64,000 nucleotides of DNA, taken from NCBI GenBank assembly GCA_963817885.1, contig CAWFQE010000004.1:294064-358063 (forward strand), in the 5' to 3' direction. Both the position numbers and the translations under genes were made by a program. Below the pieces are notes generated by a model, which saw nothing but the letters and a program-made list of their open reading frames with translations, had not been told where the DNA came from and did no database searches. Numbering within the stretch: the first letter of the stretch is position 1; every line of letters starts with the position of its first letter. This document shows positions 14,966 to 38,756 of this stretch, piece by piece. The DNA is from an uncultured Acidobacteriota bacterium (GTDB lineage: Bacteria; Acidobacteriota; Vicinamibacteria; Vicinamibacterales; JAKQTR01).

Positions 14966-16069
14966 TTGAAACTCCAGATCGTCCTGCTGCCCGGCGATGG
15001 AATCGGGCCGGAAGTGGTCGATGGCGCGGTCACCGTGCTGAACGCGATCGCGAAACGTTTCGCGCATCAGCTCGAGACGAAGACCGAGGCTATCGGCGGC
15101 GCCGCGCTTCGTGACACCGGCTCGCCCCTGCCTGCCGCGACGCTCCAGTCCTGCCGGTCGGCGCGCGCCGTGCTGCTCGGAGCGGTCGGCGATCCCGCGT
15201 TCGACGCTGCGCCACGACATCTGCGGCCGGAGCAGGGGCTGCTCGCCCTGCGCAAGACGCTGGGTGTGTACGCGAACCTCCGGCCCGCGCGCATGTGGCC
15301 CGGCCTCGAAGATGCCGGGCCGCTGAAGTCTTCCCGCGTGGCGGGCACTGATCTCGTCTTTGTCCGTGAGCTGACCGGCGGCCTCTACTTCGGCGAGCCG
15401 AGAAGTCTCGCCGCCGACCTGTCGGAGGCGGTCAACACCCTGCGCTACTCGCGCACTGAAGTAGAGCGCGTGGCACGGGTGGCGTTCCGCCTGGCCGGCG
15501 GCCGCCGGCAATTCGTCACCTCGGTCGACAAGGCCAACGTCCTCGAGACGTCACAACTCTGGCGGGCAGTCGTCTCCGAGGTGGCACGGGACTACCCGGG
15601 AATCCGCCTCGAGCACATGTATGTCGACGCGTGCGCGATGGCCCTGGCGCTCGACCCGCGGCGCTTCGACGTCCTGCTGACGGAGAACCTGTTCGGAGAC
15701 ATCCTCTCCGATGAGGCCGGCGCGATCGTCGGATCACTTGGCCTGCTGCCCTCTGCGTCCATCGGCGACGGGACGGGCCTGTTCGAGCCCGTTCACGGAT
15801 CGGCTCCCACCCTGGCGGGCAGGGGAGTGGCCAATCCGATCGGCGCCATTCTCTCGGCCGCGATGATGCTTCGCGCAACCTTCGGGCTCGAAGCCGAGGC
15901 CCGCGCCATCGAGCTGGCCGTCGAGCGGGCCATTCAGTCCGGTGCGCGGACCATCGATCTGGTGGACCGGCCCGACGCTCCGTCAGTGGGCGGGCCGGCG
16001 CTCGCCAGGCTGATCGCAGACTCCATCCCGGACGCCGCGGCGACAGCCTCTCAATCGCGCACGTCGTAG
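14966..16069 (+). CDS. leuB: 3-isopropylmalate dehydrogenase
   Basis: 367 aa with a TTG start: KLQIVLLPGDGIGPEVV...LLGAVG...LRPEQGLLALRK.LGVYANLRP...VRELTGGLYFG...NLFGDILSDEA..GSLGLLPSAS. The last ~15 codons and the stop lie inside direct-repeat copy A. Confidence 0.9.
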   Translation: MKLQIVLLPGDGIGPEVVDGAVTVLNAIAKRFAHQLETKTEAIGGAALRDTGSPLPAATLQSCRSARAVLLGAVGDPAFDAAPRHLRPEQGLLALRKTLGVYANLRPARMWPGLEDAGPLKSSRVAGTDLVFVRELTGGLYFGEPRSLAADLSEAVNTLRYSRTEVERVARVAFRLAGGRRQFVTSVDKANVLETSQLWRAVVSEVARDYPGIRLEHMYVDACAMALALDPRRFDVLLTENLFGDILSDEAGAIVGSLGLLPSASIGDGTGLFEPVHGSAPTLAGRGVANPIGAILSAAMMLRATFGLEAEARAIELAVERAIQSGARTIDLVDRPDAPSVGGPALARLIADSIPDAAATASQSRTS

Positions 16070-17120
16070 ATGCGGATCTCCGGCTCCTGGCTTCCCCGGT
16101 GGGGGACTGCCAGGTACAGACGATTCTGCTGAGGTACATAAGATGACGCCGCAGTCTTCCTCGTCGGCGATGAAGGGCCCGGGCTCCTCTGCCGAGAGAC
16201 GACGGAGCGCCGCGGCGGCTACACGTACGGTTTCGACGTGGAGGCGCTCCGTGACGTCGCCGAGATACCCGCCAGCGAGGTTGACGACCAGCGGAATGCG
16301 CCGGCGCAGGATGTGCCCGATGACGAACTGGTCCCGGAACCGGAGGAACTCGCGGTCGACGCCGCCAATGCCGCCGACCGGGTCGTCCTCGAACGGGTCC
16401 ATGCCCGCCTGGTACTGAACGATGCCCGGCCTGACGCGGTCGAGCCAGTCGGGAAGCAGCCGAAGCGCGCGCCGGTATTCCGAGGCGTCATCGACCTCGT
16501 GCAATTCGACGTCGGGCGTATCGTCGGCTTCGGTCCAGCTCGAGCCGGAAATGTCGAACAGCCCGAAGCGCCGGTCGCCGCGAACGAGGTCCTGCGTCCC
16601 GTTGCCGTGGTGGGCGTCGAGGTCGACGATTCCGACCTTCGAGACCAGGCCGTCGTCCAGCAGCATCCTGCCGGCGCCTGCCAGGAAGTTGAACGTGCAG
16701 TAGCCGCAGCCGGACGCGAAGCCTGCGTGGTGGGCGCCCGACACCGGGTGCAGCACGAGCCCATCCCGCATGGCCAGGCGGCACGCGGCGGCGTGGCCGC
16801 TCCAGATCCTGGCGACCGACTCCGCAAAGGCCGGCGACCAGCGGAAGCCCTGCGACTCCGCCGTGCGGCGCGGAAGCCCCGTGCGGACCGCCTCGACATA
16901 AGCAGGGTCGTGGACCGACGCGATACTCGCCCAGGCCTGTTCGTGCGTGAATGGCGCCGATCTCGATCTCGATGAGGCGCTCGTCCAGCGCCAACTCGAC
17001 GACGCGCCGCTGCTTCGTCGTGCTGTTCGTGCTGGCGGCCTCGACGCAGTAGTTCTCGTCCCAAACCGTTGCGATCTTGTAGTTGTCCCCGGCACACCTC
17101 CTGTCTTTCTTCTCCTGCAT
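15983..17120 (-). pseudogene. histone-deacetylase-family (HDAC/AcuC-like) protein; it is frameshifted and its reading frame crosses the island boundary
   Basis: The N-terminus is in ORF 16488..17120 (KIATVWDENYCVEAA...LIEIEIGA). The rest is in ORF 15983..17095 (PFTHEQAWASIASVHDPAYVEAV...HPVSGAHHAGFASGCGYCTFN...VDLDAHHGNGTQD...YQAGMDPFEDDPVG...NLAGGY). The frame change is near 16953-16959. The ORF has no stop inside the island. It reads through repeat A and terminates at 15983, antisense to leuB. Confidence 0.8.
16024..16140. repeat. direct repeat copy A: an orphan duplicate of the 3' end of the beta-propeller gene
   Basis: By hand alignment it matches 19198..19315 with 8 mismatches and one 1-nt indel. 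The minus strand encodes YVPQQNRLYLAVPHRGSQEPEIRIYDVRD-stop with no gene body upstream. Confidence 0.9.
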
Positions 17121-17372
17121 TGTCCAACGAGGGTGTGACAGGGAAGGTCACGGCCTCGTCATCGGCGCACCGCGGCGCGTCGCGAGCAGACGACCGCGTA
17201 GCTCCGAAATGGGAATGGGGTTTCCATTCAGTCCGGTACCGTGCTCGAATCGCTCGAATCCACCGGCTTCAACAGCGAAGACGATTGGACCTGCGGAGCG
17301 GTGGAAATACCGTTCCAGTCGCTGAAAGGAACGCATTGGTTCGCCGACGAGGTCTCGAGGCGAGGTGGTGGG

Positions 17373-19030
17373 TCAGTTTGAATCGTCAGGTTCGCCGAAG
17401 GGCATGGGGCTTGTCTCCCTGACTGCCGGCAGCGCCTTCGGCGCCCGCTTGAATGTAACACTCGTCTGGGCCGGAGGCCGGTCAATGGACTTCCCGGTCA
17501 GCAGTTCTTCTACCGTGAGGATCTGCAACCGTGCATGCTTGCCCCAGGGTGACGTGTAGAAACCGGCGCTGGCGCATTCCTTTCGCATCGGGATGGTAGG
17601 TTCATCCATGCACAACAGGACACCGATTTCGGCCTTCTCGCGTTCGAGGACACCGCGAAGATCGCGCAGATGGGATACCGTGACGTGTCCGGCCTTCACC
17701 GACAGGATGATCTGCTTCGTCTTCGCGGTCTCGCCTTCGTGGAAGTAGATACGTCCGTCGATGCCCTTGTCCGCGCCTTTCTTCCCTTCAACAGGTCGAG
17801 CGCCGACCAGGCCGAGCGCCCACCACTGGAACTGATACGGATCGGCGGCGGCCAGGCTGCCGCGTCCGGCACGGAAACTGGCTCGCCGATGACCTGGTAC
17901 TTGGCGCGGCCGCCGAACGAATCCGTCAGCCGGCTCCTGATCAAGGTGATGGCGAGGTGCGTGATGTCGATGCCGATCCAGCGACGTTCGAGCTTCTGCG
18001 CCACCGCAATCGTGGTCCCACACCCGCAGAACGGGTCGAGCACGATGTCGCCTTCGTTGCTGCTGGCAGTGAGGATGCGCTCGAGCAGTGCTTCGGGCTT
18101 CTGCGTCGGGTAGCCGAGACGTTCGCCGCCAACGGGGTTAATCCGGTCGATGTCATCCCAGATGTCGGGAACGGTTTTTCCCTTCAGTTCTTCCCGATAC
18201 CGCTTGTACTGCGGCATCGTCCCCTTCTTGGGCCAGTAGATCCGCCCTTCTTTGTCGAGTTCATCCAGCTTCTCCACCGTGAACTTCCAGTGCATCCCCT
18301 TTGCGCCGGGATCGATCCCACGCCACGGCCTCCCGGAACTTCCATGACGAATACCGGCCGCGCACAGATTATCCCGCCAGTGGAGCCGGCCATCCCCATC
18401 GTCGAAGCGGTAGTACTTGTCTAGATAGGCAGGTTCGTAGTCGGTTCGAGGCGCATTCCACTGAACCCTGTCGGTCTTCGCGTAGTAGAGCAGAACATCA
18501 TGAATAGGCGAGAACTTCTTCGCGCTACTGTGGGCCGTTGTTCGTTTCCAAATGATCTCGTTGTGGTAGTTCGTCGGCCCGAACACGGCGTCCATGAGCA
18601 GCTTCAGGTAATGGCTCGCTGTTGGGTCGCAGTGGAGGTAGAGGCTCCCGGTCGGCTTCAGCACGCGGCGCAATTCCACGAGGCGCGGCGCCATCATGGC
18701 CAGGTACGCCATCATGTCGCTGTCGCCGAGCAGGCTCCGGAACGCCTGCATCGCCTGGGACACTTTGCCGCCAGTCTCGATCATCTCGACGCAGGCTCGT
18801 GCGGCGCTCTCGTCCCACCGCCAAGTATCCTCAAACGCCTTGATCTGGGACGCGGCCCGCGTGCCATCGTGCTCGGCGAACAGCACGTTGTAGCTGGCAT
18901 TCGAGTTGAAGGGCGGGTCGAGGTAGACGAGATCGACGCTCTCGCTGTCGACGTGTCGCCGAAGCACATCGAGGTTATCGCCGTAATACAGCAAGTTCAT
19001 GTCGGGCCGATTGTAGCTCGACTCAGGCAC
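17373..19030 (-). pseudogene. beta-class N6A/N4C DNA methyltransferase fused to a C-terminal PD-(D/E)xK (Mrr-like) nuclease domain; 1-nt frameshift
   Basis: ORF 17696..19030 carries motif IV (VDLVYLDPPFNSN) before motif I (IVLDPFCGCGTTIAVA). ORF 17373..18023 continues with ...DPYQFQWWALGLVGARPVEGKKGADKGIDGRIYF...ILSVKAGHV...REKAEIGVLL. The frames join at GEPVSVPDAAA | LAAADPYQFQWW if one C is added to GCAGCC-TGG (about 17851-17858). The likely true start is the ATG at 19000 (MNLLYYGDNLDVL). Confidence 0.85.
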
Positions 19031-19190
19031 GGTCGAGCAGACCGACGATTTCCGCGATTGTCCAGACGTGATCGGTGACGCCAGCTTCCATCGCCGGCGT
19101 CACGCGCAGGTTCTGGTGGACACAGCCGACGTTGTCATACGTGAAGTAGAGAGCTACTGCCGCGATGTCGTTCTCGATCTTCTTGCTGAA
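19023..19190 (-). mobile_element. C-terminal remnant (~55 codons) of an IS transposase gene
   Basis: My translation is FSKKIENDIAAVALYFTYDNVGCVHQNLRVTPAMEAGVTDHVWTIAEIVGLLDRA-stop. It resembles the conserved C-terminal tail (..SKK.EN...A..L.F..YNF.R.H..L..TPAM.AG..DHVW...E...LL) that I recall from IS1-like or related transposases. There is no N-terminal part and no inverted repeats. It sits directly against repeat copy B. Confidence 0.5.
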
Positions 19191-19197
19191 TGCGTTT

Positions 19198-19315
19198 CAT
19201 CCCCGGACGCTGCAGCCACAGCCTCTCAGTCGCGCACGTCGTAGATGCGGATCTCCGGCTTCTGGCTTCCCCGGTGGGGGACGGCCAGGTAGAGACGATT
19301 CTGCTGAGGCACATA
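19198..19315. repeat. direct repeat copy B: the functional 3' end of the beta-propeller gene plus 28 nt downstream
   Basis: See copy A. It covers the last 29 codons and the stop of the 19226..19909 gene. Confidence 0.9.
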
Positions 19316-19909
19316 CAGCGACGTGCGGGCCCCTGAGGCGGTAGGCACCTTCGCGATGCGGGTGAACTGGCCGGCGTCCCGCTGCCCAAAGACGTCCAGG
19401 AACCCCTCTCCGCAGCTGATGTACAGGCGCTTGCGCGCCGCATCGAAGAACAGATCGTCGGTGTCGCCGGAGATCTCGATGGCGCCGTTGCCGTGCGCGA
19501 CGTAGAGGCGCCTGGCGACTGCGTCGTAGCGGACATTATCCGCGTCTTCCGACAGCGGCACTTTGCGCTTCACTGAACCGTCGCTCGCGTCGAGAATGAC
19601 CAGGTCACCCGATTCGCCGTTGGCGACCGCGATCTGATCCAGCTCCGGCAAAGCCGCAATCCCCTGGGGCTCGTGGAAGCCGGACAGGCTCCGCGTGCGA
19701 GCGCCCTTCGCCAGGTCCAGCACTTCCACGGTGTCGTTTCCCAGAGCCGCGACGAAGAGCCGCTGGCGTGCGGCGTCAATCGCCAGATGATCGAAGCGGC
19801 CTTCCACACCGGACAGCTCGATCGTTTGCTTCAGCACGAGCGGGCCCTGCGCGGATGCGGTCTGAACCATCCCGACGGCCAGTATCGCCGCGCTCCATGA
19901 ATGTCGCAT
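19226..19909 (-). CDS. secreted beta-propeller repeat protein (YncE/YVTN-like)
   Basis: 227 aa with a signal peptide (MRHSWSAAILAVGMVQTASAQG). Repeated blocks of the type RLFVAALGNDTVEVLD, RLYVAHGNGAIE, RLYISCGEGFLDVF and RLYLAVPH are present. Confidence 0.7.
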   Translation of the reverse strand: MRHSWSAAILAVGMVQTASAQGPLVLKQTIELSGVEGRFDHLAIDAARQRLFVAALGNDTVEVLDLAKGARTRSLSGFHEPQGIAALPELDQIAVANGESGDLVILDASDGSVKRKVPLSEDADNVRYDAVARRLYVAHGNGAIEISGDTDDLFFDAARKRLYISCGEGFLDVFGQRDAGQFTRIAKVPTASGARTSLYVPQQNRLYLAVPHRGSQKPEIRIYDVRD

Positions 19910-20589: not shown

Positions 20590-21324
20590 CTACCGTCCTT
20601 TCGTCCTTCCTGTGCCTGGTCCCGGGCGCCGCCGCATTCGCCCTCTCGCGCCAGATGGTGCCGGCGCGCTCGTGAACGATCGGTACAGCGCCTCGAAGAC
20701 CACGATGCCGTGTTCGATGAGGTCCTTGTCGAGCGGGAACACCTGCCGCAGGCCATCGATCAATCGCCCGACGCCCGGCGCTTCCGCCACGTTGTACCGG
20801 GTCTCCTTCAGATCCAGGTCGTGGACGAGGTGGCCGAGCCTGGCGGCGGCCTGATCGGCGATGCCGAACCGCTCCAGGAGGGTCTCGTACGTGCAACAGC
20901 CGCCCTGGTGGCTGAACGCGACGTCGTACATGTCGAACGGCACCGCCTTCGATGACGGGGCGGGCTTGTCGCCAAACGCGAACCGGGCCGCGGGATCGAC
21001 GAATCGCCGGATCAGCCACGCCGAGGCCGATCGATCGATCCCGGGGCGAGGGCGCGTGAGCCAGGTCCTGCCGCGAAAGTCCTTCGGCTGCAGCACGCCG
21101 CCGGGGTCCGGCCGTTCGCGAAGCCCGGTCGCCGGTTCGGCCACCACGCGCTCCAGTTCGCTGAGCGCCGCGTGGGTCTCCTCCCGGCCTCCCGCGCCGA
21201 AGAAGTCGTTTGCGGCCACGCGCGCGAAGCGGTCGCGCACCTGCCGCACGGCCCGCTGCAGGCGCCGCCGATCGGTCCCCCGCATCGCGCCGGCCTGGGC
21301 CGCTCTCCGGGTCAGGGCCCGCAC
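20590..21324 (-). CDS. ChrB-domain (chromate-resistance-regulator-like) protein; the N-terminus is probably displaced by a 1-nt deletion in a homopolymer
   Basis: WLTRPRPGIDRSASAWLIRRFVDPAARFAF...AVPFDMYDVAFSHQGGCCTYETLLERFG is the ChrB C-terminal domain. The frame is open upstream to a TGA. An ATG at 21461 (MKADIPANRG) joins it if the C6 run at 21431-21436 is C7. No chrA transporter gene is nearby. Confidence 0.7.
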   Translation of the reverse strand: MRALTRRAAQAGAMRGTDRRRLQRAVRQVRDRFARVAANDFFGAGGREETHAALSELERVVAEPATGLRERPDPGGVLQPKDFRGRTWLTRPRPGIDRSASAWLIRRFVDPAARFAFGDKPAPSSKAVPFDMYDVAFSHQGGCCTYETLLERFGIADQAAARLGHLVHDLDLKETRYNVAEAPGVGRLIDGLRQVFPLDKDLIEHGIVVFEALYRSFTSAPAPSGARGRMRRRPGPGTGRTKGR

Positions 21325-21580
21325 ATCCTCCCGGATCGATTCGAAGAGGCGCTCGCGGTCCGAGCGGAAGGCCGCGACGAGGTCGTCGTGCGTGAAGGAG
21401 TCGATGGTGTCCGAGTCAACGACACTCGCTCCCCCCTGTTTGCCGGGATGTCAGCCTTCATCGATTCGAAGCCCTCGCGCGCCCGCGGAGAGTCCGGCCG
21501 CGCGCAAATGGCGCTCCTGACGAACGTCGCAGAAGGTGGTATTACTGTGTGTGCGCCCCCCGGCGAACTGGAGGCCTTCC

Positions 21581-23884
21581 ATGCACGCGCCGGAAGACAC
21601 GACGCCCCTGTCTCCATGGTGGAGGCACGGGGTCATCCTCGTGATGATTGCGGGCTTCGCAGTCCTGTCCTATCTCACGGTCCGCACCTACATCGACGCC
21701 CCGCCCATTCCAGCGCGCGTGGAGGACGAGGCCGGCCGCGCCCTGTTCACCTCGGCCGACGTCCTGCGCGGCCAGGAGGTGTTCCTCAAGTATGGCTTGA
21801 TGGAGCACGGGACGCTCTGGGGCCACGGCGCGTACCTTGGACCCGACTACAGCGCCGAAACGCTGCACCGGGCGGTCGAGATCGGCCGCGACGCGCTGGC
21901 GCAAGGACGGTACGGCCGGCCCTATGCGTGGCTCGAGACTGGAGCTGCCGCGGACATCGCCGACACGGTCCGGCGGACGCTCAAGGAGAACCGATTCGAT
22001 CCGGTGACAGGCACCCTTCGGTTCACCAGCATCCAGAGCGACGCCTACGCCGCATCGCGCCACGACTGGGGCGAATTCTTCTCGGGGCAGCAGGCGGCAG
22101 CCGGCTTGCCTCTCCACTACATCCGGGACGGCCGTGAGCTCAACGACCTCGCGACCTACTTCACCTGGGCCGCCTGGGCTGCGGTCACCGACCGGCCGGG
22201 GAAGAGCTACTCCTACACCAACAACTGGCCGTACGACCCGGACGCCGGCAACACGCCGAGCGGTCCGACGTACCTCTGGAGCGCGCTGAGCCTCATCACC
22301 CTGCTCGGCGGCCTCGGCACCGTCCTGTTCCTTGTCGGGCGATTCGACTACCTGGGCTGGCACGAAGCGTCGACGCCGGGCCACTCGCACGACAACTTGA
22401 TGAATTCCTGGCGGTGGACGCCAAGCCAGCGCATGACGGCCTGGTACTTCGCGGTCGTCACGATACTCTTTCTCGGACAGGCGCTGGTCGGTGGCGTGAT
22501 CGCGCATTACCGGGTCGAGCCGGGCGCCTTCTATGGCTTCGATTTGTCGAGCCTGCTTCCATTCAACCTGGCCAGAACGTGGCACCTGCAGCTGGGGATC
22601 TTCTGGATCGCCACCGCGTGGGTCGGCGGCGGACTGCTGCTCGCGCCGCTGGTCGGCGGGGCTGAACCGCGGGGCCAGCGGCCCGGCGCCGTCGTGCTGC
22701 TGGTCGCGCTGGCGGTCGTGGTGTTCGGCAGCCTGTTCGGCGAGTACCTGGGCATCAATGGCGCCCTTGGCAACGCGTGGTTCTGGCTGGGCCACCAGGG
22801 GTCCGAGTACCTGGACCTCGGGCGGTTCTGGCAGCTGCTGCTCGCGGCCGGCCTCGTGTTCTGGCTGGTGCTCATGTATCGGGCGCTGCGGCCCGTGATG
22901 GTTCGGGGCCATCGATCCGAGCTGGCGGCGTTGTTCCTGTACGCCGCCGCCGCGATCCCGGTGTTCTATCTGCCGGCCCTCTTCTTCGGACCCGACACGA
23001 ACTTCGCCGTGATCGACAACTGGCGTTTCTGGATCATTCACCTCTGGGTGGAAGGCTTCTTCGAGCTGTTCGCGACGGTGCTCGTCGCGGTGATCTTCCA
23101 CCTGCTGGGGCTCGTCACGGCCCGGACGGCCACGCGGGTCGTGTATCTCGACGCGATTCTCTACCTGGGCGGAGGCATCATCGGCACCGGGCACCACTGG
23201 TACTTCACGGGGCAGGGGACGCTGAACATGGCGCTGGCGGCGTCGTTTTCGGCGCTCGAAATCGTGCCGCTGACCCTGCTGACGCTGGACGCCTGGGATT
23301 TCGTCCGCCTGCGGCATCGCCGGTGCGAGGAATGCGGAGACGCGCTTGCGGGCCGTCACCGATGGACGATCAACTTCCTGATGGCGGTAGGCGTCTGGAA
23401 CTTCGTGGGCGCCGGCATCTTTGGATTCCTGATCAATCTGCCGATCGTGTCCTACTTCGAGGTGGGAACCGTCCTGACCCCGAACCATGGGCACGCGGCG
23501 CTGTTCGGCGTGTTCGGCATGCTCGCGCTCGCCGTGGTCGTGTTCGGTCTCCGGGCGCTCTCGTCGGAGGCCGCGTGGGGGCGCGTGGAGCGCCTGGTCA
23601 AGTGCGGTTTCTGGGGGCTCAACGTGGGGCTGGCCCTGATGATCGCGCTCGACCTGTTTCCGGCCGGCGTGCTGCAGTTGTGGGACTCGATCGCCAATGG
23701 ATACTGGCACGCCCGGCGGCTCGGCTTCACGATGAGCGGCACGTTCCACCGGCTCGAGTGGATTCGGCTGGCGGGAGACGGGATCTTCATCGTCGCCGGC
23801 GTCGTCCCGATGGTCCTGGCGACGCTGAGGATCGTGCTCGATCGGAGCACGCGGCGGCCATCTGCGCCCCAGCCGGAGGCGTGA
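21581..23884 (+). CDS. norB: quinol-dependent nitric oxide reductase (qNOR, NorZ-type single subunit)
   Basis: ORF 21536..23884 trimmed to the ATG at 21581, which is preceded by GGAGG. About 767 aa with the N-terminal extension typical of qNOR and a haem-copper-oxidase core: WIIHLWVEGFFELFAT, GTGHHWYF, PNHGHAALFGVFG. Confidence 0.9.
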   Translation: MHAPEDTTPLSPWWRHGVILVMIAGFAVLSYLTVRTYIDAPPIPARVEDEAGRALFTSADVLRGQEVFLKYGLMEHGTLWGHGAYLGPDYSAETLHRAVEIGRDALAQGRYGRPYAWLETGAAADIADTVRRTLKENRFDPVTGTLRFTSIQSDAYAASRHDWGEFFSGQQAAAGLPLHYIRDGRELNDLATYFTWAAWAAVTDRPGKSYSYTNNWPYDPDAGNTPSGPTYLWSALSLITLLGGLGTVLFLVGRFDYLGWHEASTPGHSHDNLMNSWRWTPSQRMTAWYFAVVTILFLGQALVGGVIAHYRVEPGAFYGFDLSSLLPFNLARTWHLQLGIFWIATAWVGGGLLLAPLVGGAEPRGQRPGAVVLLVALAVVVFGSLFGEYLGINGALGNAWFWLGHQGSEYLDLGRFWQLLLAAGLVFWLVLMYRALRPVMVRGHRSELAALFLYAAAAIPVFYLPALFFGPDTNFAVIDNWRFWIIHLWVEGFFELFATVLVAVIFHLLGLVTARTATRVVYLDAILYLGGGIIGTGHHWYFTGQGTLNMALAASFSALEIVPLTLLTLDAWDFVRLRHRRCEECGDALAGRHRWTINFLMAVGVWNFVGAGIFGFLINLPIVSYFEVGTVLTPNHGHAALFGVFGMLALAVVVFGLRALSSEAAWGRVERLVKCGFWGLNVGLALMIALDLFPAGVLQLWDSIANGYWHARRLGFTMSGTFHRLEWIRLAGDGIFIVAGVVPMVLATLRIVLDRSTRRPSAPQPEA

Positions 23885-23940
23885 CGGGCGGCGCCCTCGA
23901 CCGCCACGGGGGAACGCCCGCGGACGAGGACCGTTCGACT

Positions 23941-23978
23941 ATCGGGCGAGGGCCGGCCGAGGCTGGCCCCCGCCCGAT
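23941..23978. terminator. GC-rich hairpin between the convergent norB and DUF2231 genes
   Basis: ATCGGGCGAGGGCC - 10-nt loop - GGCCCCCGCCCGAT. This is a 14-bp stem with one mismatch and no U-tract. Confidence 0.35.
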
Positions 23979-23983
23979 CGACC

Positions 23984-24586
23984 TCAGCGCGCGTCCCGGC
24001 CGTCCCCCGTGTGCCCCGCGCTCTCGTTCTGAGCACGTTCGACCGGCCGGACCTCGCGATCCGTTGACGGCGCAGTCGGCGCCGCGGGCCCGGCCGCTGC
24101 GGGCGGGATGAACGCGTGCACGCCGAGCTGGTGGACGAGCATTCCGCCCTGGTGCGCGACGTTGGCGACCAGCACGGCGGAGGCCGCGAACGCCAGGAGG
24201 AAGACCCCGTTGGTCACGACCCGGTACGCCGGGCGGGCGAGGTTCTTGAACCATCGCGGAGCCGCAAGCGCCACGGCGTAGAGCACGGTCAGCACCGTGA
24301 GCAGCGTGCGAGCGGTCTCAGCCAGTTCCGAGTGGCGCTCGAGCACGCGGTTGATCGCGTCGGTCCGCGTGGCCAGCTCCGCTGCCGCTTCGCCGGTCCC
24401 GACCGCCACGAACGCGGCGGCCGTGCTGATCGCCAGCAGGACCAGCGCCGAGACCGAGAACAGCGCGGCGTGCCTGGGCACGATCAGGCTGAGGACCAGG
24501 AAGAGCGGTGCGACGAACACCAGCGCGATCGGAAAGTGAATCACCAGGGGATGGAGTCCATCCCAGCCCGGCCAGGGAGGCAGCAT
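23984..24586 (-). CDS. DUF2231 integral membrane protein
   Basis: 200 aa: LHPLVIHFPIALVFVAPLFLVL..., four predicted TM helices. It starts 3 nt after the rubrerythrin stop. Confidence 0.7.
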   Translation of the reverse strand: MLPPWPGWDGLHPLVIHFPIALVFVAPLFLVLSLIVPRHAALFSVSALVLLAISTAAAFVAVGTGEAAAELATRTDAINRVLERHSELAETARTLLTVLTVLYAVALAAPRWFKNLARPAYRVVTNGVFLLAFAASAVLVANVAHQGGMLVHQLGVHAFIPPAAAGPAAPTAPSTDREVRPVERAQNESAGHTGDGRDAR

Positions 24587-24589
24587 GGG

Positions 24590-25225
24590 CTAGCTCACTT
24601 TCAGGTACTTCTCGGAGGCCGTGAAGCAGACCGGGCACTTGGTGAAATCCACCACCGTGACCGTCTTCCCGCACACCGGGCAGACGTAGAAGGTTTTCGC
24701 CGCCTTCCAGCCCTGGAGATTGTTCGACGCTTCGGTATACAGCTTCGCGTGCTCGCCCTCGGCGCTGATCGCGAAGTTGAACGACCTCAGCGCATCCTTG
24801 TTGCCGCTGGCCTTGGCCTCGGCGATGAACTCCGGGTACATCGTGTCGCGTTCGTAGGTCTCGCCGGCGATGGCGGCCTTGAGATTGTCGGCGGTCGCCT
24901 TGATCTCGGGCAGCTTGATGTCGGCCTTCGGCGTGCCGCCGAGCTTCTTGATGACCTCGCCGTGGTTGAAGGCGTGAGCCTGTTCGGCCCTGGCCGCCGC
25001 GCGGAACAGCGCCGCCGCGCCCGCGAAGCCCTCCTGATCAGCCTTCTTCGCGAACTCGGCGTACTTCGCGTTCGCGTTGGACTCGCCGTTGAACGCGGCC
25101 ATCAGGTTGTCGAGCGTCGTGCCCGCCGCAGGTGTTGCGGCCAGTGCGGCGCCGGCGAACCACGTGCCGGCGACGAGCACTGCCAGGGCCACCACCACCA
25201 CGCGCCAAATGCTCCTTCGATTCAT
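24590..25225 (-). CDS. rubrerythrin with an N-terminal export (Tat-like) signal
   Basis: ORF 24590..25294 trimmed to the ATG at 25225: MNRRSIWRVVVVALAVLVAGTWFAGAALA-ATPAAG. It has two E...ExxH di-iron pairs (ESNANAKY...AEQAHA; ETYERD...AEGEHAKLY) and a C-terminal rubredoxin-like CPVC...CPVC. Confidence 0.85.
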   Translation of the reverse strand: MNRRSIWRVVVVALAVLVAGTWFAGAALAATPAAGTTLDNLMAAFNGESNANAKYAEFAKKADQEGFAGAAALFRAAARAEQAHAFNHGEVIKKLGGTPKADIKLPEIKATADNLKAAIAGETYERDTMYPEFIAEAKASGNKDALRSFNFAISAEGEHAKLYTEASNNLQGWKAAKTFYVCPVCGKTVTVVDFTKCPVCFTASEKYLKVS

Positions 25226-25636
25226 CACGCCATCCCTCCCCCTGCAACTGATGTGAGCACCAGGGGCGGACCCGCCGCCGGCCCGCGACAGCACGGCTGT
25301 CGCCAGGTGCGAAGGCGATCATCCCGTCCCACCGTTGAGACACCCGAGAGCTGACCATGTCGCGAATCGGTCGGCCGGAGACGGCTTCAGCGCGAGGACC
25401 AATGTGCTGAGGAGGCAAGTCGACGCGTCAGCACCCGCAACAGCCGGAGGGCACCGGTCGATCGATGCGAAAGGGGGGCCGCGCTCCGTTGCCCTGGAGC
25501 GGTGAAGCCATTTTCCTGAAATGTGTGGTATCTCGTCAATATTGGGCCCGAGACCGGCGAAGATCCCGTCACCCGGGACCGCAGCGGTTCTTGTGCGCCT
25601 CGCGACGCCCGCGGGCCTCTTCCAAGACCTGATCGC

Positions 25637-28325
25637 TTACCTCAGGCGTTCGGCCAGAACGATGTCGCCGGACCAGCGGATGTGCCCGATGATGAGCGAC
25701 GATCCGTCGCGCGACCACGTGACGCCACGCATGGAGACCCCGGTCGGCAGGTCGATCAGCTTCATGAACGGCATGGCGCCGCCCGGGGTCACGATCCAGA
25801 TCGTGGCAGTCTGGTTGCCAGGCAGCGACACAGCCGCGAGCCGACGACCGTCCGGCGACCACGATAGAAACCCGTTCGACAGCTGCTGGGGTGCGTCGGG
25901 CACGCTCGAAGGTCGAGGGCGGCCCTCGTGATTCACGAGGCGCAGGTAGGTTCCGACCCCAGGGTGGGGTTCGAGATAGGCGATCACGTCATCTCGTGGA
26001 CGACCAGGCCGGCGCGAATCCCCCGGCAGGCGTCGGCAGCCGTGTAGCGGTCTCCCGTCGGCCACCGAGGCTGTCATCAAGGCGGGTGCCGCGCCGCCGG
26101 GTACCGCGTAGACCAGCGTTCGCCCGTCGGGGGACCAGCCGACGGTGTCGATGACGTCGGCGAGTCGTGACCAGTCGTGGCGAGCCTCCGTCGACGTTCA
26201 CGATCCAGATGCCTCGCCGTTCCACCCCGGTCCGAGACGAAGGCCACCTGCTGACCGTCCGGCGAATACGCGGGTCGTTCGTCGATCGCCGGTCCCGACG
26301 TCAGCGGCACCGGCTGTGAGAGGTCGGCGCTGCGCGATCCAGATGTTGCGGTTGCCGGTCCGCGACGAGCTGAACGCGACGCGCGTGCCGTCGGGCGATC
26401 GAGAGGGATCGAGATCGCCCGAGAATCCGTCGGTCAACGGCTCCAGCGCCGCCGGATGGTCAAAGGCGACCGGGACACGGTCCAGCGCCTGCTGGACGTC
26501 GATGACCGTCGCGACCAGGCGCCGGCCGTCCCGCGCAGACCGACGGTTCGCCGGTACTCGCCGACTCCGGTGGTCAGGCGCACGTCTCGGCCGGTGCGGA
26601 GATCGCGCCAGAAGAGGTTCAGGTCGACGCCGTCGGGGTTGGCGGCATAGAACAGACCGTGGCCGTCCGCGCTCGGAAACGGATTGACCGCGCGTCGGGC
26701 GGTGCGCACGACCGGCTCGATCGGCCCCCCGGAGGCGGGCACCCGGAAGATCTCGGTCGGCTCCGCGTTGAGGCTCTGGAAACCGAAGTTGAAGTAGACA
26801 TACCGGCCGTCAGGCGACCACCTCATCCAGTGGGCATGGCGCCCACCCTGCGCGGGCGACGAGCTCGTGCGGGTTCTGGCCGTCCGCGTCTGCAATCAGT
26901 ACCGCGTCACCAGCCGACCCGCCTGCCCGCATGAACGCGATGCGCGTGCCGTCGGGCGACCAGCGCAGCCCCTGCTCGGCCGTGCGCAGCAGTTTGCGCG
27001 GCACGCCGCCGAGCGGCGCGGGCACGACCCAGCTCGACATCTGCGGCGCGCGTGACGCCGGGAGGTCCGCCGGCAAATGCGATCAGTGTGCCGTCCGGCG
27101 AAATGTCCAGGCCCCCGATGATGTCCTGCGACTGCACATCCAATCCGGCCGACGCCGTGAGATTCGCCGCACCGCCGCCGTCGATGAATTTCACCCAGAC
27201 GTCGGTCGGACCGCGCGCGTTCGACAGGTAGGCGACCCACTTGCCGTCGGGCGAGATGGCGGCGCCGAACTCGTGCGCTGGCGTCGAGACCAGCCGGATC
27301 ACACGATCGAAGGTCGGCGCCGCGGGTGCCACGCGCAGCCACAGGACCAGCAGCCCGAACGCCAGCATCACCGCTGCGCCGGCGCAAGCTGCGGCGATCG
27401 CACGCCGCCACGACGCGGGCGCAGCCGCCGGGCGCTTGTCGGCGCCTGCCGCTCCATTCGTCGGCGGCGGCGACAGCATCTCCTCGAGTTCGATGCGCGC
27501 ATCGCCGATGTCGCGAAGACGGCGGCGCGCATCCTTCTGAAGACATCGCCGCAGCAGATCCCTGATGCCCGGCGGCGAGGGTGGCGGCAGAGCGCCCAGG
27601 TCCGGTTCGCGCTGAAGGAGATTCGCGAGCGTTTCGGCCGTGCTGTCGCCCGCAAACGCGGAATGACCCGTGAGCATCTCGAACAGCACGCAGCCAAACG
27701 CCCAGATGTCGGTCCGGCGGTCCACCGGGCGGCCGCGCGACTGTTCCGGACTCATATACGCCGCGGTGCCGAGAATGACGCCCGACTGGGTGCCTGTCCC
27801 GGTAATCGTCGGTGAATTCTGGATGTCTACCCGCGACGCCTCGCTTGCGTAGACCTTTGCGAGGCCGAAGTCGAGCACCTTCACCGTGCCGTCAGAGCGC
27901 ACCTTGATGTTGGCGGGCTTCAAGTCGCGGTGGATGATGCCTTGCTCGTGGGCTGCCTCGAGCGCCTCCGCAACCTGTACCGCGATCGCCAACGCCTCGT
28001 CAGGAACCATCGGGCCGCTCGAGATCCGTTCGGCGAGCGTCGGACCGTCAACGAGCTCCATGACCAGCGCTCGCACGCCGTTGGCCTCTTCCAGGCCGTA
28101 GAGCGACGCGATGTGAGGATGGTTGAGGGAGGCGAGCACCTGCGCCTCGCGCTCGAAACGCCGAAGGTGATCCCGATCGCGCGTCAGCGCTTCAGGGAGG
28201 ATCTTGAGCGCGACGTCGCGCTGCAGCCGGGCGTCACGGCCGCGATACACCTCGCCCATTCCGCCCGCCCCGAGCGAGCCTCTGACTTCATACGGCCCCA
28301 GCCGAGTCCCCGGCGCTAGCGGCAC
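25637..28325 (-). pseudogene. Ser/Thr protein kinase with a TM helix and a PD40/TolB-like beta-propeller; the propeller part is broken by at least 8 frame changes
   Basis: ORF 26907..28325 holds an intact kinase ([32 protein letters not shown]), a TM helix (AIAAACAGAAVMLAFGLLVLWL) and the first SPDG repeat. The remaining repeats (WSPDGTRIAF, WSPDGRYVYF, SPDGTRVAFSS, YSPDGQQVAFVS, WSPDGRTLVY, WSPDGRRLAAVS, WSRDGSSLII) are scattered over ORFs 26810..27076, 26434..26895, 26198..26437, 26077..26310, 25989..26225 and 25637..26080 in all three frames. Confidence 0.85.
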
Positions 28326-28457
28326 GGCTCCATCCTCGTGCTATGTTGGACGCACAATCCTGCTCACAGGTCTCCGCCGCCATGGCACCGAGCGTTTCCA
28401 TGAAGATTCCGGGAACGCGGCGCCCCGGCGTTGCGGACCGCGTCGTCGGGGATTCCC

Positions 28458-29288
28458 ATGTCGCGACCGGCCATCCGCGATCGGTGGCTGATTTCGTTCG
28501 CCGCGTTCCTGCGTTCGGTCGGCATCGGCATGACTGGCGTGCTGCTTGGTGTCTACCTGGCGCAGGCGCGCTACCCGGCCGTTCAGATCGGCATCATCAC
28601 GGCGGCAGGGCTCGCCGGCAACGTCCTGGCCCTGATTCCCGTCACGTTCCGCGGAGACAGCCTCGGCCGGCGCCGGGTGCTGGTCGGACTCTCGGTGCTC
28701 TCGGCGGCCGGCGGGGCAGCGATGGCGGCCGGCTAAGGGGTCGGCACGCTGACCTTCGTCAGTTTCTTCGGGCTGATGAACGGCATGGGGCGCGACTGCG
28801 GGCCGGCGTGCGCCCTGGAACAGGCGCTGCTGCCGGGGCTGGTGCCGTCGTCGCGCCGGACATGGGCCTTCGCCCAGTACAACGTCGTGCAGGACGCGGG
28901 CCACGCCATCGGGTCGCTCTGCGGTGCACTCCCGTTCATCCTCCGTTCGCTTCTCGGTGCCGACCTCCTCGCCTCGTACCGCTGGGCGTTCCTCGTCTAC
29001 GCGCTCATCAACCTTGCCGCCGCCGCGGTCTACGCGACGCTTTCCAGCCAGAGTGAAGTCCGGACCGCGGGCCCCGCCGGGATTGCCGCGGCGCCCTCGC
29101 TCTCGCCCCACTCCCGGAGAGTCGTCACGAAGCTCTGCGCCCTGTTCGGCATCGATAGCCTTGGAGGAGGGTTCCTGGGCGGCGCGATCAAGATCGCCTA
29201 CGAGCTCCTGCTGTATGGGTCGTTCCGCCAGCTCAAGCCGCCCGAGGAAGAGGGGTCGGGACGGATTTCAGAACAAGGCGATCCGTGA
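28458..29288 (+). pseudogene. MFS transporter remnant with an in-frame TAA and an internal deletion
   Basis: ORFs 28431..28736 and 28776..29288 are in the same frame, separated by a TAA at 28734-28736 (...AAMAAG-stop-GVGTLTFVSFFGLMNGMGRD...). After ...LFGIDSLGGGFLG the sequence jumps to what looks like the family's C-terminal tail (GAIKIAYELLLYGSFRQLKPPEEE). About five TM helices therefore seem to be missing. Confidence 0.65.
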
Positions 29289-30005
29289 TTACGGAACTGT
29301 GTGTAGGTGCTCTGCGGTCGTGTCTTCCTCGACCACTCGAGGCAACTGGCGACACCGACCGGGCCCTCGTCCCCCAGACCGCCACTTGAGTGCACGCGCC
29401 GTGCGGCTTCGCCACTCAACTGACCCAAAGTGCCGGCCAAGTCGTATGGCGTCTCGAATCTGGCTCAGAGCTTGGGACGGCTCAGGAACGTTGAGCTGTT
29501 CGGGCCAGTCGTCGGGTCGCGGGACCGGCCACGGGGCGAGTTCTGGTCTCCCTGCTTCGGCCCTTGAGCGCGAAGCGCTCGACCACGGCCAGTCCTCAGC
29601 GCTGGCTGCCAGACGGGCGCGCAACGGGTTGCGCTCGACATAACGGCACACCCGCAGAAAATGGAAATCGTTCTGCACTGCGATTGCCTTGAATCGCCCC
29701 TGATAAACGGCTCCTCGGCCGACGCTTCCCTTCCCCGTGCGCCACTGCTGTGCATGCGTCGCCGTCAAGCGCATCATGAACCGCGACAACCCGTTGTCGT
29801 CACCGGGCCACAGGACAAGATGCCAGTGGTTCGGCATGAGCGTGTAGGCAAGCAACCTCATTGGGATCTCGCGAGAGGTATCCCTCAGCAGACGAAGGAA
29901 GTGCTCGTAATCGCTGCTCTGCTCGAATGGCACCAAGCCTTGCACGGCTCGATTGAGGACGTGGAAGACAATCTGCCCCGAGGCTCGTCGTGGACGTCTG
30001 GGCAT
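29289..30005 (-). CDS. REP-associated tyrosine transposase (RAYT; IS200-like Y1 HUH transposase)
   Basis: 238 aa: FHVLNRAV...DYEHFLRLL......LLAYTLMPNHWHLVLWP (HUH motif) ...VYQGRFKAIAVQND.HFLRVCRYVERNPLRA (catalytic-Tyr helix). No IS200-type terminal hairpins or REPs lie within 300 nt. Confidence 0.8.
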   Translation of the reverse strand: MPRRPRRASGQIVFHVLNRAVQGLVPFEQSSDYEHFLRLLRDTSREIPMRLLAYTLMPNHWHLVLWPGDDNGLSRFMMRLTATHAQQWRTGKGSVGRGAVYQGRFKAIAVQNDFHFLRVCRYVERNPLRARLAASAEDWPWSSASRSRAEAGRPELAPWPVPRPDDWPEQLNVPEPSQALSQIRDAIRLGRHFGSVEWRSRTARALKWRSGGRGPGRCRQLPRVVEEDTTAEHLHTVP

Positions 30006-30338
30006 TTGACACAGGGGGCTTCGCGATTAGCGACGCCGCCGCGCGACTCTGGACGTCGACGATGCAAGATGGCCGCCGCGGCGGGCCGCGGTTCATGTTC
30101 GGCACACCCCAGCGTTTGTCGGGGATCCTCCTTAATCGTCGGACGAGAGTGGCAAGAACTGCCACCCAGTCAACCAGATCTGGTCGCAGAGACTTAGAGT
30201 GGAGTGGCCGTCGAGTAGCCAGCGACGCGTACAAAACCGTCAGTTTCTATTGACCCGACAGCAAATTCGTCCCGACCCCTGGACCTGACGGCTGGACACT
30301 GACGGCAATGTACGACAGGATTAGTAGGGGAGCCGCCC

Positions 30339-35490: not shown

Positions 35491-38400
35491 ATGTCGCGTG
35501 TCTGGCGTCGGTTCGCTGTGCTATCGGTGACGATCCTGACTCTGCTGGCCGGTCGCGCCGTCGGCGCCCAGACATCCGGCGCGACACTCCTCGGCACGGT
35601 CAGCGACGGCAGTCGGTCCGTCGTCTCGGCGGCGAAGGTGACAGCCGCCAACCAGGACACTGGCCTGACGCGCGCATGCGCGTCCGGCGCCGACGGCGGA
35701 TTCGTCCTGCCCAACCTCGCGCCCGGCCGGTATCGCCTGACGGTGGACGCCCCGGGTTTCCGGACGTCGGTCGCCTCCGGGATCGTCCTGGAGGCTGATC
35801 AGACACGCCGACTGGATGTTCGACTTCAACTTGGCACGGTCAGGCAGGAGATCACGGTCGCCGCCAGCCTGCCGCTCATCCATACCGAGACGCCGGCAAA
35901 GTCGGAGGTCGTGCCCAACCTGCTGGTGACGGCGCTCCCGCTCGACGGCCGCAACTACCTCGACCTGGTGCTGCTGGTGCCCGGCGTCTACCGGCGCGTC
36001 GGTGAGGACGACGGCGACGGCGTCGCGACCAACGGGACCCGGTCGGACGCGACCGCCTTTGCGCTCGACGGCCTGGTGAACCGCTCCGATCGCAACGGCA
36101 ATTCGGGCGTGGCGGTGCCGCTCGATGCGGTGCGCGAATTCAGCGTCGAGACGTCGACCTATTCCGCCGAGTACGGCCGCAATGCGGGCGCCCAGGTGAA
36201 CGTGGTGTCGAAGTCCGGGGCCAACCGGTTCAGCCGGAACCGTCTACGACTACGCGCGCGACGACCGCCTCGACGCCCGGGACTACTTCGCGCCTCCCGG
36301 CGAGCGCCCGACGCTCAGGCGCCAGCAAGGGGGCGGCACCCTCGGTGGCCCTGTCTGGCGGGACCACACGTTCTTCTTCGGCGCCTACGAGCAGCTGCAC
36401 GAGCGCCGCTCCGAGGCGGCGAACACGACCGCGCCGAACGCAGCCTGGCTTTCCGGCGACTTTCGCAACGTACGCGGCGCAGGGCCCGATGGGATCTGGG
36501 GGAACGCCGACGACACCAATCGCATTCTCGATCCCGTCACGCGCCAGGAATTCGCCACGCCGAACCTCATTCCGATCGCGATGTTCAACGCGGTGTCGCG
36601 TCAGATTCTTCCGTTCATCCCGGCCGCCAACCTCCCTGGCGCGCTCGATGGATACGCCGCGCAGGGAATCTCTCAGGACGACCGACGTCAGTTCCTCGCC
36701 AGGCTCGACCATCGGCTGCTCGCGAACACGAACCTCTCGGTCCGATGGGCGCGCAGCACGGGCGCCGGGATCGACCCGTTTCCGTCGCAACGCGTGTTCT
36801 ATCCGGGCTTCGGCCGCAGCACCGATCAGACCGTGGATTCATTCGCGTTCTCCGGCGTGACCTCGATCGGCGGGCGCTGGCTCAACCAGATCAGGGTCGG
36901 GTCGCTCCGCCAGCATGTCGAAACACAGGGCGACCAGCACGGCACCAACTATGTCGGCCAGTTCGGCCTGCCGGGATTGTCACAGGATCCGTCCGTGTGG
37001 GGCTACCCGACCATCCGGATCGACGGGTTCGGGGAGTTCGGCGATCGGCCCAACGACCCGTCGACCTATACCCTGACGACCATCCAGGCGGTCGATGCCA
37101 TCACCTGGACACCCGATCGCCACACGATCAAGGCCGGAGTGAACGTGATCCACTCCGGCTACGTCGAGCAGGATCTGCGGGGCATACGCGGCGACTTCCG
37201 GTTTCGCGGCCGCGCCACCAACGTGACCGGCCAGACCTCGAGCGGATTCCGATCCTTCGCGGATTTCCTGCTCGGCTACATCGACCAGAGTCAGCGGCAA
37301 CTGGGATCCGACCCGGCGCGCCTGACGGGATGGCAGACGGCGTTCTTCCTCCAGGACGACTGGCGAATCCTCCCGTCGCTGACGCTGAACCTCGGGCTGC
37401 GATACGAGCGCCAGACGCCGCTTCGCGAACGCGCCAATCGGCTCGCCAACTTCGTGCCCGCGCTGGGGGCCGTCGTCCTCTCCGGTGATTCGCGCTTTCC
37501 CGCGTCGCTCATCGAGGCAGACACGCACGACATCGGTCCGCGCGCAGGCTTCGCCTGGAGGCCGTCGGGCGACGGGCGGACGGTGATTCGCGGCGGCGCC
37601 GGCCTCTACTACAGCCTCGAGCAATTCAACGTCACCCGCCAGCAGCTGGCCGTCAGTTACCCGTTCGTCCAGCGCGAGCAATTCACGCGAACCACCGATC
37701 CGCGCACGGCAATCACGTTCAGCGATCCGTTTCCGGCCGGTCGCGCAGCCGTCCAGGGCATCAATCAGCCGTTCGGCATGGCGGTCAATTACCGGACGCC
37801 GCAGATTGCGCAGTTCAATCTGACCGTTGAGCGGCAGCTGGGAGCGGGGACCGCGATCGAAGCGGGGTACATCGGATCGCGCGGACGCCATCTTGGCCGG
37901 CGCTACAACCTGAACCAGCCCATCCCGGCGGGATTGGGCCCCGGCGGCGCGCTCATCACCACGGTCCCGTACCCGGCGTTTGCCGACATCCAGTTCCAGG
38001 ACCAGACGGGCACCTCCAGCTACAACGCCCTTCAGGTGTCGGCGCGACGCCGCGCCGCCACCGGGTTGACCCTGATTGCGTCGTATACGCTGGGGAAGGC
38101 CACCGACCTGGGTTCGACCAGCACCGGCAACCTGTCGAACGTCTCGACCTCGGGGACGCAGAAAGCGCCTCAGGACATCTACAACATGTCTGCCGAGCTC
38201 GGACGGTCCGACTTCGATCGGCGGCATCAGTTCAACGTGGCGTTCGCGTATGAGCTGCCATTCGGCGCCGGCAGGCGGTGGCTGGCGCACGCCGCACCCG
38301 TCGTCGACGCGATCGTGGGCGACTGGCAGGTCAGTGGAATCATCACGCTGCTGTCCGGACGGCCGTTCACCCGTACAATATGCAGCCGGAGATTTCGCGA

Positions 38401-38756
38401 CCGAGCGGCCGGACCAGGTGTCGGATCCCACGTCCGGCGTGCCGCCCGGCCTCTGGTTCAACCCGGCGGCGTTCGCGCGGCCGGTCGCGACGCCGGCCAA
38501 ACCGAACCTGTACGGCAACGCGGGGCGCAACAGCCTCACCGGCCCGGATTACCAGACGGTTGACGTGTCGGCCGTCAAGTCGATCAGGATCCGGCGCACC
38601 GTGATTGTCCAGTTACGGCTCGAGGCGTTCAACCTGCTCAATCGCGCGAATTTCCAGGTTCCGGTGTTCCTGCTCGATCGCACCGACGTCGGACGTCTCA
38701 CCGCGACAGCGGGCAGCGCGCGCGAGTTGCAGTTCGCCGCCCGGATTGGATTCTGA
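35491..38756 (+). pseudogene. TonB-dependent outer-membrane receptor with a carboxypeptidase-regulatory-like N-domain; two 1-nt frameshifts
   Basis: Frame 1 (35491 to about 36235) reads ...GTVSDGSRSVVSAAKVTAANQDTGLTR...ADGGFVLPNLAPGRYRLTV...NGTRSD...VSKSGANRFS. Frame 2 (to about 38372) reads GTVYDYARDDRLDARDYF...TFFFGAYE...LSGRPFT. Frame 3 (to 38756) reads VQYAAGDFATERPDQVSDP...GNAGRNSLTGPDYQTVDVS..K......LRLEAFNLLNRANF...ARELQFAARIGF, the C-terminal TonB-receptor signature. The shifts are at CC (36233-36237) and CCC (38370-38372). Confidence 0.85.

Follow-up and report, generated by a model that had tools for sequence, protein, structure and literature searches.

We analysed a 64-kb window (the whole stretch of 64,000 nt, to whose first letter all positions refer) of a metagenome-assembled genome from an uncultured Acidobacteriota bacterium. 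Between leuB and a convergent beta-propeller gene, it holds an insert (16141-19197) that is bracketed by two direct copies, A and B, of a ~117-bp segment spanning the overlapping ends of these two genes. Most likely, the locus is what erosion has left of a mobile element, and as a genome scar it is of an ordinary kind. It comprises the following features:

14966-16069, plus strand: leuB (3-isopropylmalate dehydrogenase), best homologue 77% identical
16024-16140, no strand: repeat copy A (A-type, 117 nt), with the leuB tail on the plus strand and an orphan propeller 3′ fragment on the minus strand
16142-17155, minus strand: HDAC-like (PF00850) gene with 35 nt upstream (Pfam, E = 1.3e-26)
17156-17330, no strand: spacer of ~170 nt, low GC, without similarity to any locus compared
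17373-19001, minus strand: N6/N4 DNA methyltransferase with a C-terminal Mrr-like/inactive restriction endonuclease (REase)-like domain (Pfam), open reading frame (ORF) split near 17858
19030-19197, minus strand: 3′ fragment of an IS1-family transposase gene, last 56 codons (NAFSKK...LLDRA and stop; tblastn, E = 2e-11)
19198-19315, no strand: repeat copy B (B-type, 118 nt), with a relic of the leuB tail and the true propeller 3′ end
19226-19909, minus strand: YncE-like beta-propeller gene, open ORF of 227 aa, 78% identity to homologue P0002
20074-20586, minus strand: DUF1529 protein, partner of the propeller (Pfam and neighbourhood comparison)
20590-21324, minus strand: protein with the ChrB_C domain only, partner of the propeller (Pfam and neighbourhood comparison)

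Alignment of 16024-16140 with 19198-19315 by MAFFT gives 8 substitutions and one 1-nt indel, and a repeat search of the window returns 16027-16140 and 19202-19315 as 114 ungapped nucleotides of 93% identity; both bear out the repeat that an initial annotation, made from the letters alone, had aligned by hand with the same differences. In the numbering of copy A, the substitutions lie at 16036, 16039, 16042, 16054, 16086, 16108, 16117 and 16135, and the indel distinguishes CATCC-CGG in copy A from CATCCCCGG in copy B. Copy B is composed of the last 29 propeller codons, the stop and 28 nt downstream, and 3,057 nt separate it from copy A; all of these figures were correct on recount. The orphan fragment in copy A likewise reads through 29 codons on the minus strand to a stop at 16051-16053. 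Its peptide, YVPQQNRLYLAVPHRGSQEPEIRIYDVRD, is identical to that of copy B except that copy A has E where copy B has K, a residue that is invariant in a 10-sequence propeller alignment. On the plus strand, PDAAATASQSRTS and the following stop are kept in both copies alike. Local-alignment scores outside either border equal those of shuffled sequences, so the repeat is sharply bounded, and, as in an integrative element, the direct repeats at both ends share their core with the target. A tandem array at 60.3 kb aside, the 64 kb contain no other long dispersed repeat, and neither a third copy of the repeat nor an inverted partner of its edge was found within the window. A palindrome, CGCCGCGGCG, is present in copy A (16033-16042) and corresponds to GCTGCAGC in copy B (19209-19216); two of the three nearby differences (16036 and 16039) change both palindrome halves with the symmetry kept, a pattern that is not significant.

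Fragments of the locus were recovered, as short-read Logan contigs at low coverage, from eight public runs of soil or sediment (X1-X8) that belong to two studies. The junction between copy A and the HDAC-like gene is crossed by contigs from X2, X3 and X6 (97-98% identity), the junction between leuB and copy A by a contig from X5, and a contig from X1 corresponds to 19195-19367 (end of the transposase fragment, copy B and propeller) with 100% identity. A-type and B-type alleles are each reproduced separately in independent contigs. Most of the insert is also covered by contigs from X3, so that it is present in at least two strains ~2-3% apart. These contigs bear on the possibility that mis-assembly of the metagenome-assembled genome created the duplication or the insert. 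Several genes in the window look broken, and two 1-nt indels are not found in related reads, so local consensus quality may be imperfect; yet the leuB/copy A, copy A/HDAC and transposase-fragment/copy B/propeller stretches recur in contigs from both studies, and these independent contigs bear the copy-specific alleles. An artefact is largely refuted and its remaining probability is negligible.

The insert genes had also been described as all damaged. This holds for the truncations at the inner borders and is uncertain for the frameshifts, which are single-nucleotide indels without counterpart in related environmental sequences. The HDAC-like frame is shifted by one extra nucleotide at 16964 that is found neither in a contig from X2 nor in a related soil contig (L090), and the methyltransferase frame by one missing nucleotide near 17858, where a contig from X4 has an extra G after 17858. 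The two indels are the only lesions within these reading frames and, judged by the related sequences, may be assembly errors.

Divergence and borders of the repeat copies

Seven of the 8 differences between copies A and B are silent and fall at third codon positions, in whichever frame covers them. Against a share of 24% silent changes among all possible single changes, the excess has P ~3e-4, in line with the earlier proposal that both copies diverged while coding. We compared the A-type copies of the environmental contigs with copy B over 16047-16140 (X2 and X3), 16027-16108 (X5) and 16029-16140 (X6). Six A/B differences are fixed across runs and all of them are third-position, while two sites, 16086 (E/K) and 16135, vary within the A type. 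The A-type copy of X5 has lost the orphan stop codon and carries one non-silent change; by this pattern, copy A is the copy that is now relaxed. The restriction of fixed differences to third positions indicates orthologue-like alleles from two lineages that were joined later, and not a duplication in place. The outermost differences are only 9 nt from the ungapped left border (16027) and 5 nt from the right one. It follows that the incoming DNA must have brought a complete, bounded copy with it, and later homologous replacement of one copy is unlikely.

The left edge of the repeat, C[A/G]TCC(N)CGGACGC, adjoins three unrelated partners: (i) leuB at codon ~354 (window and X5), (ii) the interior of the transposase gene (window and X1) and (iii) a flank of 39 nt and 49% GC that matches neither leuB nor the transposase and was seen in one contig from X6 (201 nt, depth 2, on window 16029-16190). 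This left flank of the X6 contig, GTGAAGGAGATCGCCACTTAGCCAGGAATATTTCGTCCT, resembles no part of the window. Read in frame with the leuB tail it has no stop (EGDRHLARNISSS-DAAAT…), and at 39 nt it is too short to name. We considered it as a leuB end and as transposase sequence and rejected both, since no significant similarity was obtained and a weak in-frame 'LAR' likeness is not interpretable. A fixed junction with three changing partners is the behaviour of an attachment (att) core or of an element end, and random breaks would not give it. The core motif of the left edge produced chance-like matches only in the loci compared, among which no helper element with this core was found. The initial annotation implied a recombination border inside the propeller gene. 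This was not borne out; the border that looks active is the left edge, in the last leuB codons.

Content of the insert

The gene content first read from the insert, namely an HDAC-like gene, a methyltransferase-nuclease fusion and a transposase remnant, was confirmed by Pfam and tblastn searches, and all of these genes lie on the minus strand, as does the propeller gene. Together they form a mosaic of three unrelated single-gene segments. Between 17101 and 19197 the GC content is 0.607, the lowest of any 2.1-kb stretch in the window (median 0.675), and over the HDAC part (16141-17100) it is 0.686, which is host-like. By composition, no more than two thirds of the insert is foreign. The two 60-nt samples on which low GC had been proposed (34/60 G+C in each of 17101-17160 and 18181-18240) were counted exactly, and the windowed calculation sustains a low-GC insert at 17.1-19.2 kb and contradicts it at the HDAC segment. 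Scans of the window for tRNA genes and Rfam families gave no match. In blastn comparisons of the island with viral and metagenome loci, similarity begins only at ~17369-17434.

The HDAC-like gene scores 94.1 bits against PF00850 (cut-off 27.9) over profile positions 10-293 of 298. Over 1,007 nt it shares 88.8% DNA identity with L090, a Joint Genome Institute (JGI) soil contig of GC 0.68. This similarity comprises the gene and 35 nt upstream only and ends at 17155, and the neighbours of the gene in L090 are not in the window. At the other end, the similarity breaks off at the border of copy A, which leaves the gene without its last ~10 codons. The gene was considered as phage cargo and rejected as such, since a scan of viral contigs gave just 5 distant matches.

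The read-through protein of the methyltransferase gene matches PF01555 (E = 1.1e-45, 156.8 bits, cut-off 26.7), PF22722 (E = 2.1e-7, 31.3 bits, cut-off 27) and PF04471 (E = 3.1e-4, 21.3 bits, cut-off 21), and it carries the motifs DPPF and FCGCGTT. Metagenomes and IMG/VR contigs are rich in intact fusions of 518-573 aa. Searched by tblastn, the C-terminal domain of the fusion was matched 76 times among 80 viral loci; the best identities of the methyltransferase are 68-77%. In the two closest viral loci (L091 and L092), the methyltransferase gene lies ~1 kb from a tyrosine integrase gene and beside repressor-type regulators. The suggested search for intact cargo relatives accompanied by an integrase was thereby successful for one cargo gene, which occurs near integrases in phage-like contigs. 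General adjacency was not found: tblastn with two integrases detected them at only 6 of the 80 loci, and we therefore claim integrase adjacency for the two closest loci only. In the closest metagenome locus, the neighbours of the methyltransferase are TIR and DUF2971 genes.

The transposase fragment is cut exactly at 19197/19198, at codon ~264. In a contig from X8, the intact transposase gene reads on past 19197 (…MSMRRFARLT, continued by NAFSKK…), so the transposase DNA of the window stops exactly at the border of copy B. Its 5′ part was found nowhere in the window, which holds the last 56 codons only and not a complete IS1-family transposase gene. A full transposase gene of 320 aa lies directly upstream of the same methyltransferase in L173 (1812-4432), with a 4-nt overlap, and the arrangement is the same in L204 (105-1939), a metagenome contig unrelated to that of L173; two further loci, L091 (11708-12506) and L240 (4458-5318), have such a transposase within 3 kb of the methyltransferase. 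Some ~40 nt past the methyltransferase stop (17335-17372) weakly resemble a motif that is conserved in L173 and L204. Insertion sequence (IS) elements with passenger genes are termed 'transporter IS', and the recurrent pairing of transposase and methyltransferase may be of this kind. The order and strand of the two genes in the window match those of L173 and L204, but in contrast to an IS with a passenger gene, the transposase is reduced to its last 56 codons, and most methyltransferase relatives have no transposase neighbour. The best candidate for terminal inverted repeats around the L173 pair is no better than those of shuffled sequences.

Flanking genes and their neighbourhood

leuB is part of a conserved leuC-leuD-lysR-leuA-leuB block. 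Alignment of its C-terminus and tblastn place the end of its similarity to homologues at 16027; its last 13 codons and stop form a lineage-specific tail within copy A. In the nearest relatives (71-77% identity), leuB has 356 aa and is followed by a LigB-family gene that is not in the window, and in the closest leuB contigs (71-75%) upstream synteny is kept. In DNA alignments, the first bases of the repeat resemble native last leuB codons of relatives, e.g., TCCGTCCGAG.

The propeller gene shows a clean in-frame loss of 100 residues relative to 9 aligned homologues. The junction, at ~19468-19473, falls between ...YVAHGNGAI and EISGDTDD..., and about two blades are gone. Nearly all of the ~120 best database matches have ~325-350 aa, compared to 227 aa in the window, and the gene scores 26.7 bits against the full-length YncE-type model NF052280 (seven-bladed, ~326-340 aa; cut-off 400). 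By these comparisons it is clearly a homologue, though an incomplete member, of the YncE-type family. Copy B had been taken as the real end of the gene; it is indeed the true 3′ end, that of a gene no longer intact, from which the 100 internal residues are missing. The ORFs of leuB and of the propeller both remain closed beside the insert, as expected when an element brings a substitute gene end.

The propeller partners likewise look shortened: the DUF1529 protein has one domain in the window and two in L081, and the ChrB protein has its C-terminal domain only. The chrB/DUF1529/propeller(/chrA) cluster recurs in Acidobacteriota, Verrucomicrobiota, Chthonomonadaceae, Binatia and others (loci L001-L082), a distribution that suggests horizontal spread, and the genes in the window are what remains of such a chromate-resistance-like cluster. 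Neither leuB nor leuA was found beside propeller homologues in 80 genome loci, and the closest propeller contigs have contexts other than leuB. Exact-protein look-ups with leuB and the propeller of the window returned no record, and degenerate junction patterns had no match in metagenome and viral contigs. Since no database sequence is sufficiently close (best leuB 77%, best propeller 78%), neither an empty site nor ancestral adjacency can be demonstrated; an ancestral convergent overlap of the leuB and propeller ends is plausible.

Genes for stress and metal functions abound downstream of leuB. The chromate-like cluster is adjoined at 21536-25294 by genes for a NorB-type nitric-oxide-reductase-like protein (782 aa), a DUF2231 membrane protein and a rubrerythrin, and a copper-efflux-like HlyD/YHS protein and a multicopper oxidase lie at 41-45.6 kb. 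Split-looking genes at 25637-30197 and 35491-38563 encode Ser/Thr kinase-PD40, MFS transporter and TonB-dependent-receptor-like proteins, the last of these with at least two frame changes; either the stretch is rich in pseudogenes or its consensus is locally in error. Between 4.5 and 16 kb, the ilv/leu genes are intact. The tandem array (60305-60562) has a 52-nt period, and a perfect 31-nt inverted pair with a GC-rich hairpin inside (33271-33301/60539-60569, 27 kb apart) resembles repetitive extragenic palindromic (REP)-type sequences.

Origin of the insertion

We favour, with moderate confidence, the reading that 16141-19197 stems from an integrative element that has decayed and lost its integrase, and that it lies between ~117-bp copies that resemble left and right attachment sites (attL and attR). 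The recurrent left edge, the foreign composition, the integrases near the closest methyltransferase relatives and the preserved flanking frames argue for it. A circular DNA would have carried a leuB/propeller gene-end segment taken from a related lineage and would have joined the chromosomal segment by reciprocal (Campbell-type) recombination, close to or at its left edge in the last leuB codons. leuB would as a result end in the element-borne copy A, and the propeller gene would keep the chromosomal copy B. Later decay would have stripped the integrase and most of the element, leaving the 3′-clipped HDAC-like gene, the methyltransferase/REase-like gene and the tail of its companion IS1-family transposase gene. 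That the joint was made by a site-specific recombinase, that decay took this order and that copy A came with the element are points that we infer. Every viable model needs reciprocal or one-sided recombination that imports the gene-end copy of a relative. Of the element at a gene 3′ end first proposed for this locus, the foreign insert between diverged gene ends stands; a clean element does not, as what remains is a truncated stump.

Several observations weigh against a former integrative element. Among the genes of the insert and the main ORFs of the 64 kb there is no integrase (tyrosine or serine recombinase), no excisionase and no further gene of an element, which agrees with the first impression that no integrase is left. 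The inner borders lie within genes, the HDAC-like gene lacking ~10 codons and the transposase being cut at codon ~264, with possible microhomologies of 3-6 nt (GTC(G) at the HDAC joint and GG.TGA at the transposase joint). By their sequence, these borders appear to favour illegitimate joining at some stage over natural element ends, and because they cut genes, the element reading needs at least two later deletions that halted at the repeats. As to content, the HDAC segment is chromosome-like, with host-like GC and only 5 distant relatives in the viral-contig scan, and the methyltransferase is tied to an IS1-family transposase, as in L173 and L204, and not to phage genes. Neither an empty site nor a circular junction was found in the eight low-coverage runs, and the database loci yielded no second genome with leuB adjoining the propeller gene. 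The third partner of the left edge is known from the single X6 contig. A ~117-bp repeat of 93% identity is also expected from a RecA-dependent single crossover, such as those of an E. coli conjugation study (PMC3240628).

The main rival is an insertion without an integrase, which we regard as possible though doubtful. Either a circle with ~117 bp of a relative's gene-end segment integrated by a RecA-dependent single crossover, or homology-facilitated illegitimate recombination anchored one donor end by leuB/propeller homology and joined the other illegitimately; the repeats would then represent the tract of homology, and the illegitimate joints would be seen in the genes truncated at the inner borders. 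Gene-internal borders with possible microhomologies are explained better in this way than by an integrative element, and the mosaic of unrelated single-gene segments and the lack of an integrase point in the same direction, as does the silent, orthologue-like divergence, which calls for a relative's copy anyway. There is precedent for both routes. In the E. coli study, single crossovers left duplications of 109-950 bp flanking the inserted DNA (PMC3240628); as in such Campbell-type insertions, a direct duplication of at least ~110 bp flanks the insert and ends where the homology of circle and chromosome ends, but the homology used there was identical and engineered, whereas the alleles here are diverged and one border occurs in three contexts. 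Homology-facilitated illegitimate recombination has left orphaned 3′ gene ends in type VI secretion system (T6SS) effector/immunity arrays and Rhs loci (PMC5361080). The locus shares with these the orphan 3′ fragment beside new DNA, a possible combination of a homologous with an illegitimate side, and relatives as donors; unlike them, it has no array and no toxin/immunity logic, and its displaced fragment and retained end form a direct repeat around the insert. Moreover, this type of recombination is reported to be rare (PMC5361080), random joints should not reuse one border as the left edge is reused with its three partners, and differences so close to both borders require a complete, bounded copy in the incoming DNA.

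Improbable in our view is that the left edge of the repeat is the end of a mobile module carrying the propeller/chromate-resistance-like cluster, with copy B as the end of a resident module in an IS1-like transposase gene and copy A as the 117-nt stump of an earlier, mostly deleted copy at the leuB end. The occurrence of the chrB/DUF1529/propeller cluster in many phyla and never beside leuB, the stop of the conserved leuB part at the left edge and the different sequences abutting this edge would fit such a module. It would, however, leave the 5′ part of the transposase to be found beyond the module, and the window has none of it; an inverted-repeat partner of the edge is likewise missing there, the ~27 nt after the propeller stop are not conserved behind propeller genes at 49 other loci, and the three differences outside the propeller part are in phase with third codon positions, which is unexpected for a non-coding end. 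Very improbable is a duplication in place, in which template switching or staggered breaks let in a foreign fragment and doubled a 117-bp target whose copies then diverged where they are. The gene-internal inner borders with short microhomologies and the closed flanking genes could be accommodated, but with half of each copy non-coding, ~47% third-position changes would be expected, compared to the 7/8 observed (P = 0.024); the six fixed A/B differences are all third-position, and the third left partner is left unexplained.

The locus belongs to a known kind of feature, the small decayed islet between duplicated gene ends. Integrase-less remnants with att sites are known in streptococci as cis-mobilisable elements (CIMEs), and islands with a displaced gene-end fragment are mapped by Islander and TIGER. 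Island-mapping tools of this type have been described (PMC9580842, PMC7426155). Like CIMEs and gene-end islands, the locus has direct repeats that duplicate a gene 3′ end and bracket foreign DNA, closed target genes, no recombinase inside and one border that recurs with different partners. It differs from them in that (i) both inner borders truncate genes, (ii) the repeats are 7% apart in an orthologue-like pattern, (iii) two convergent protein genes, with their overlapping ends in the repeat, take the place of a tRNA gene and (iv) no helper element is known with the same att site.

Three cautions follow for loci of this kind: divergence at silent sites tells that one copy is from a relative, but not by which enzyme the joint was made; genes of a metagenome-assembled genome that look 'damaged' may owe this to consensus errors; and an apparently intact target gene, here the propeller, can itself be internally deleted. 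For the cataloguing of insertion sequences that carry passengers, the recurrent combination of IS1-family transposase and methyltransferase/REase-like gene offers a modest lead. A further possibility, unlikely at present, is that the left edge is a live attachment core, used by an unseen integrase of soil Acidobacteriota to move integrase-less cargo between hosts. If so, each insertion would give leuB a ready-made substitute tail (…DAAATASQSRTS and stop), and the X6 contig would show the same cargo at the leuB end of another host or beside a stacked second element. If the reading of a decayed integrative element is true, the locus, from a poorly studied soil lineage, would add one more small islet that has lost its integrase and persists, as a passenger, where a housekeeping gene ends.

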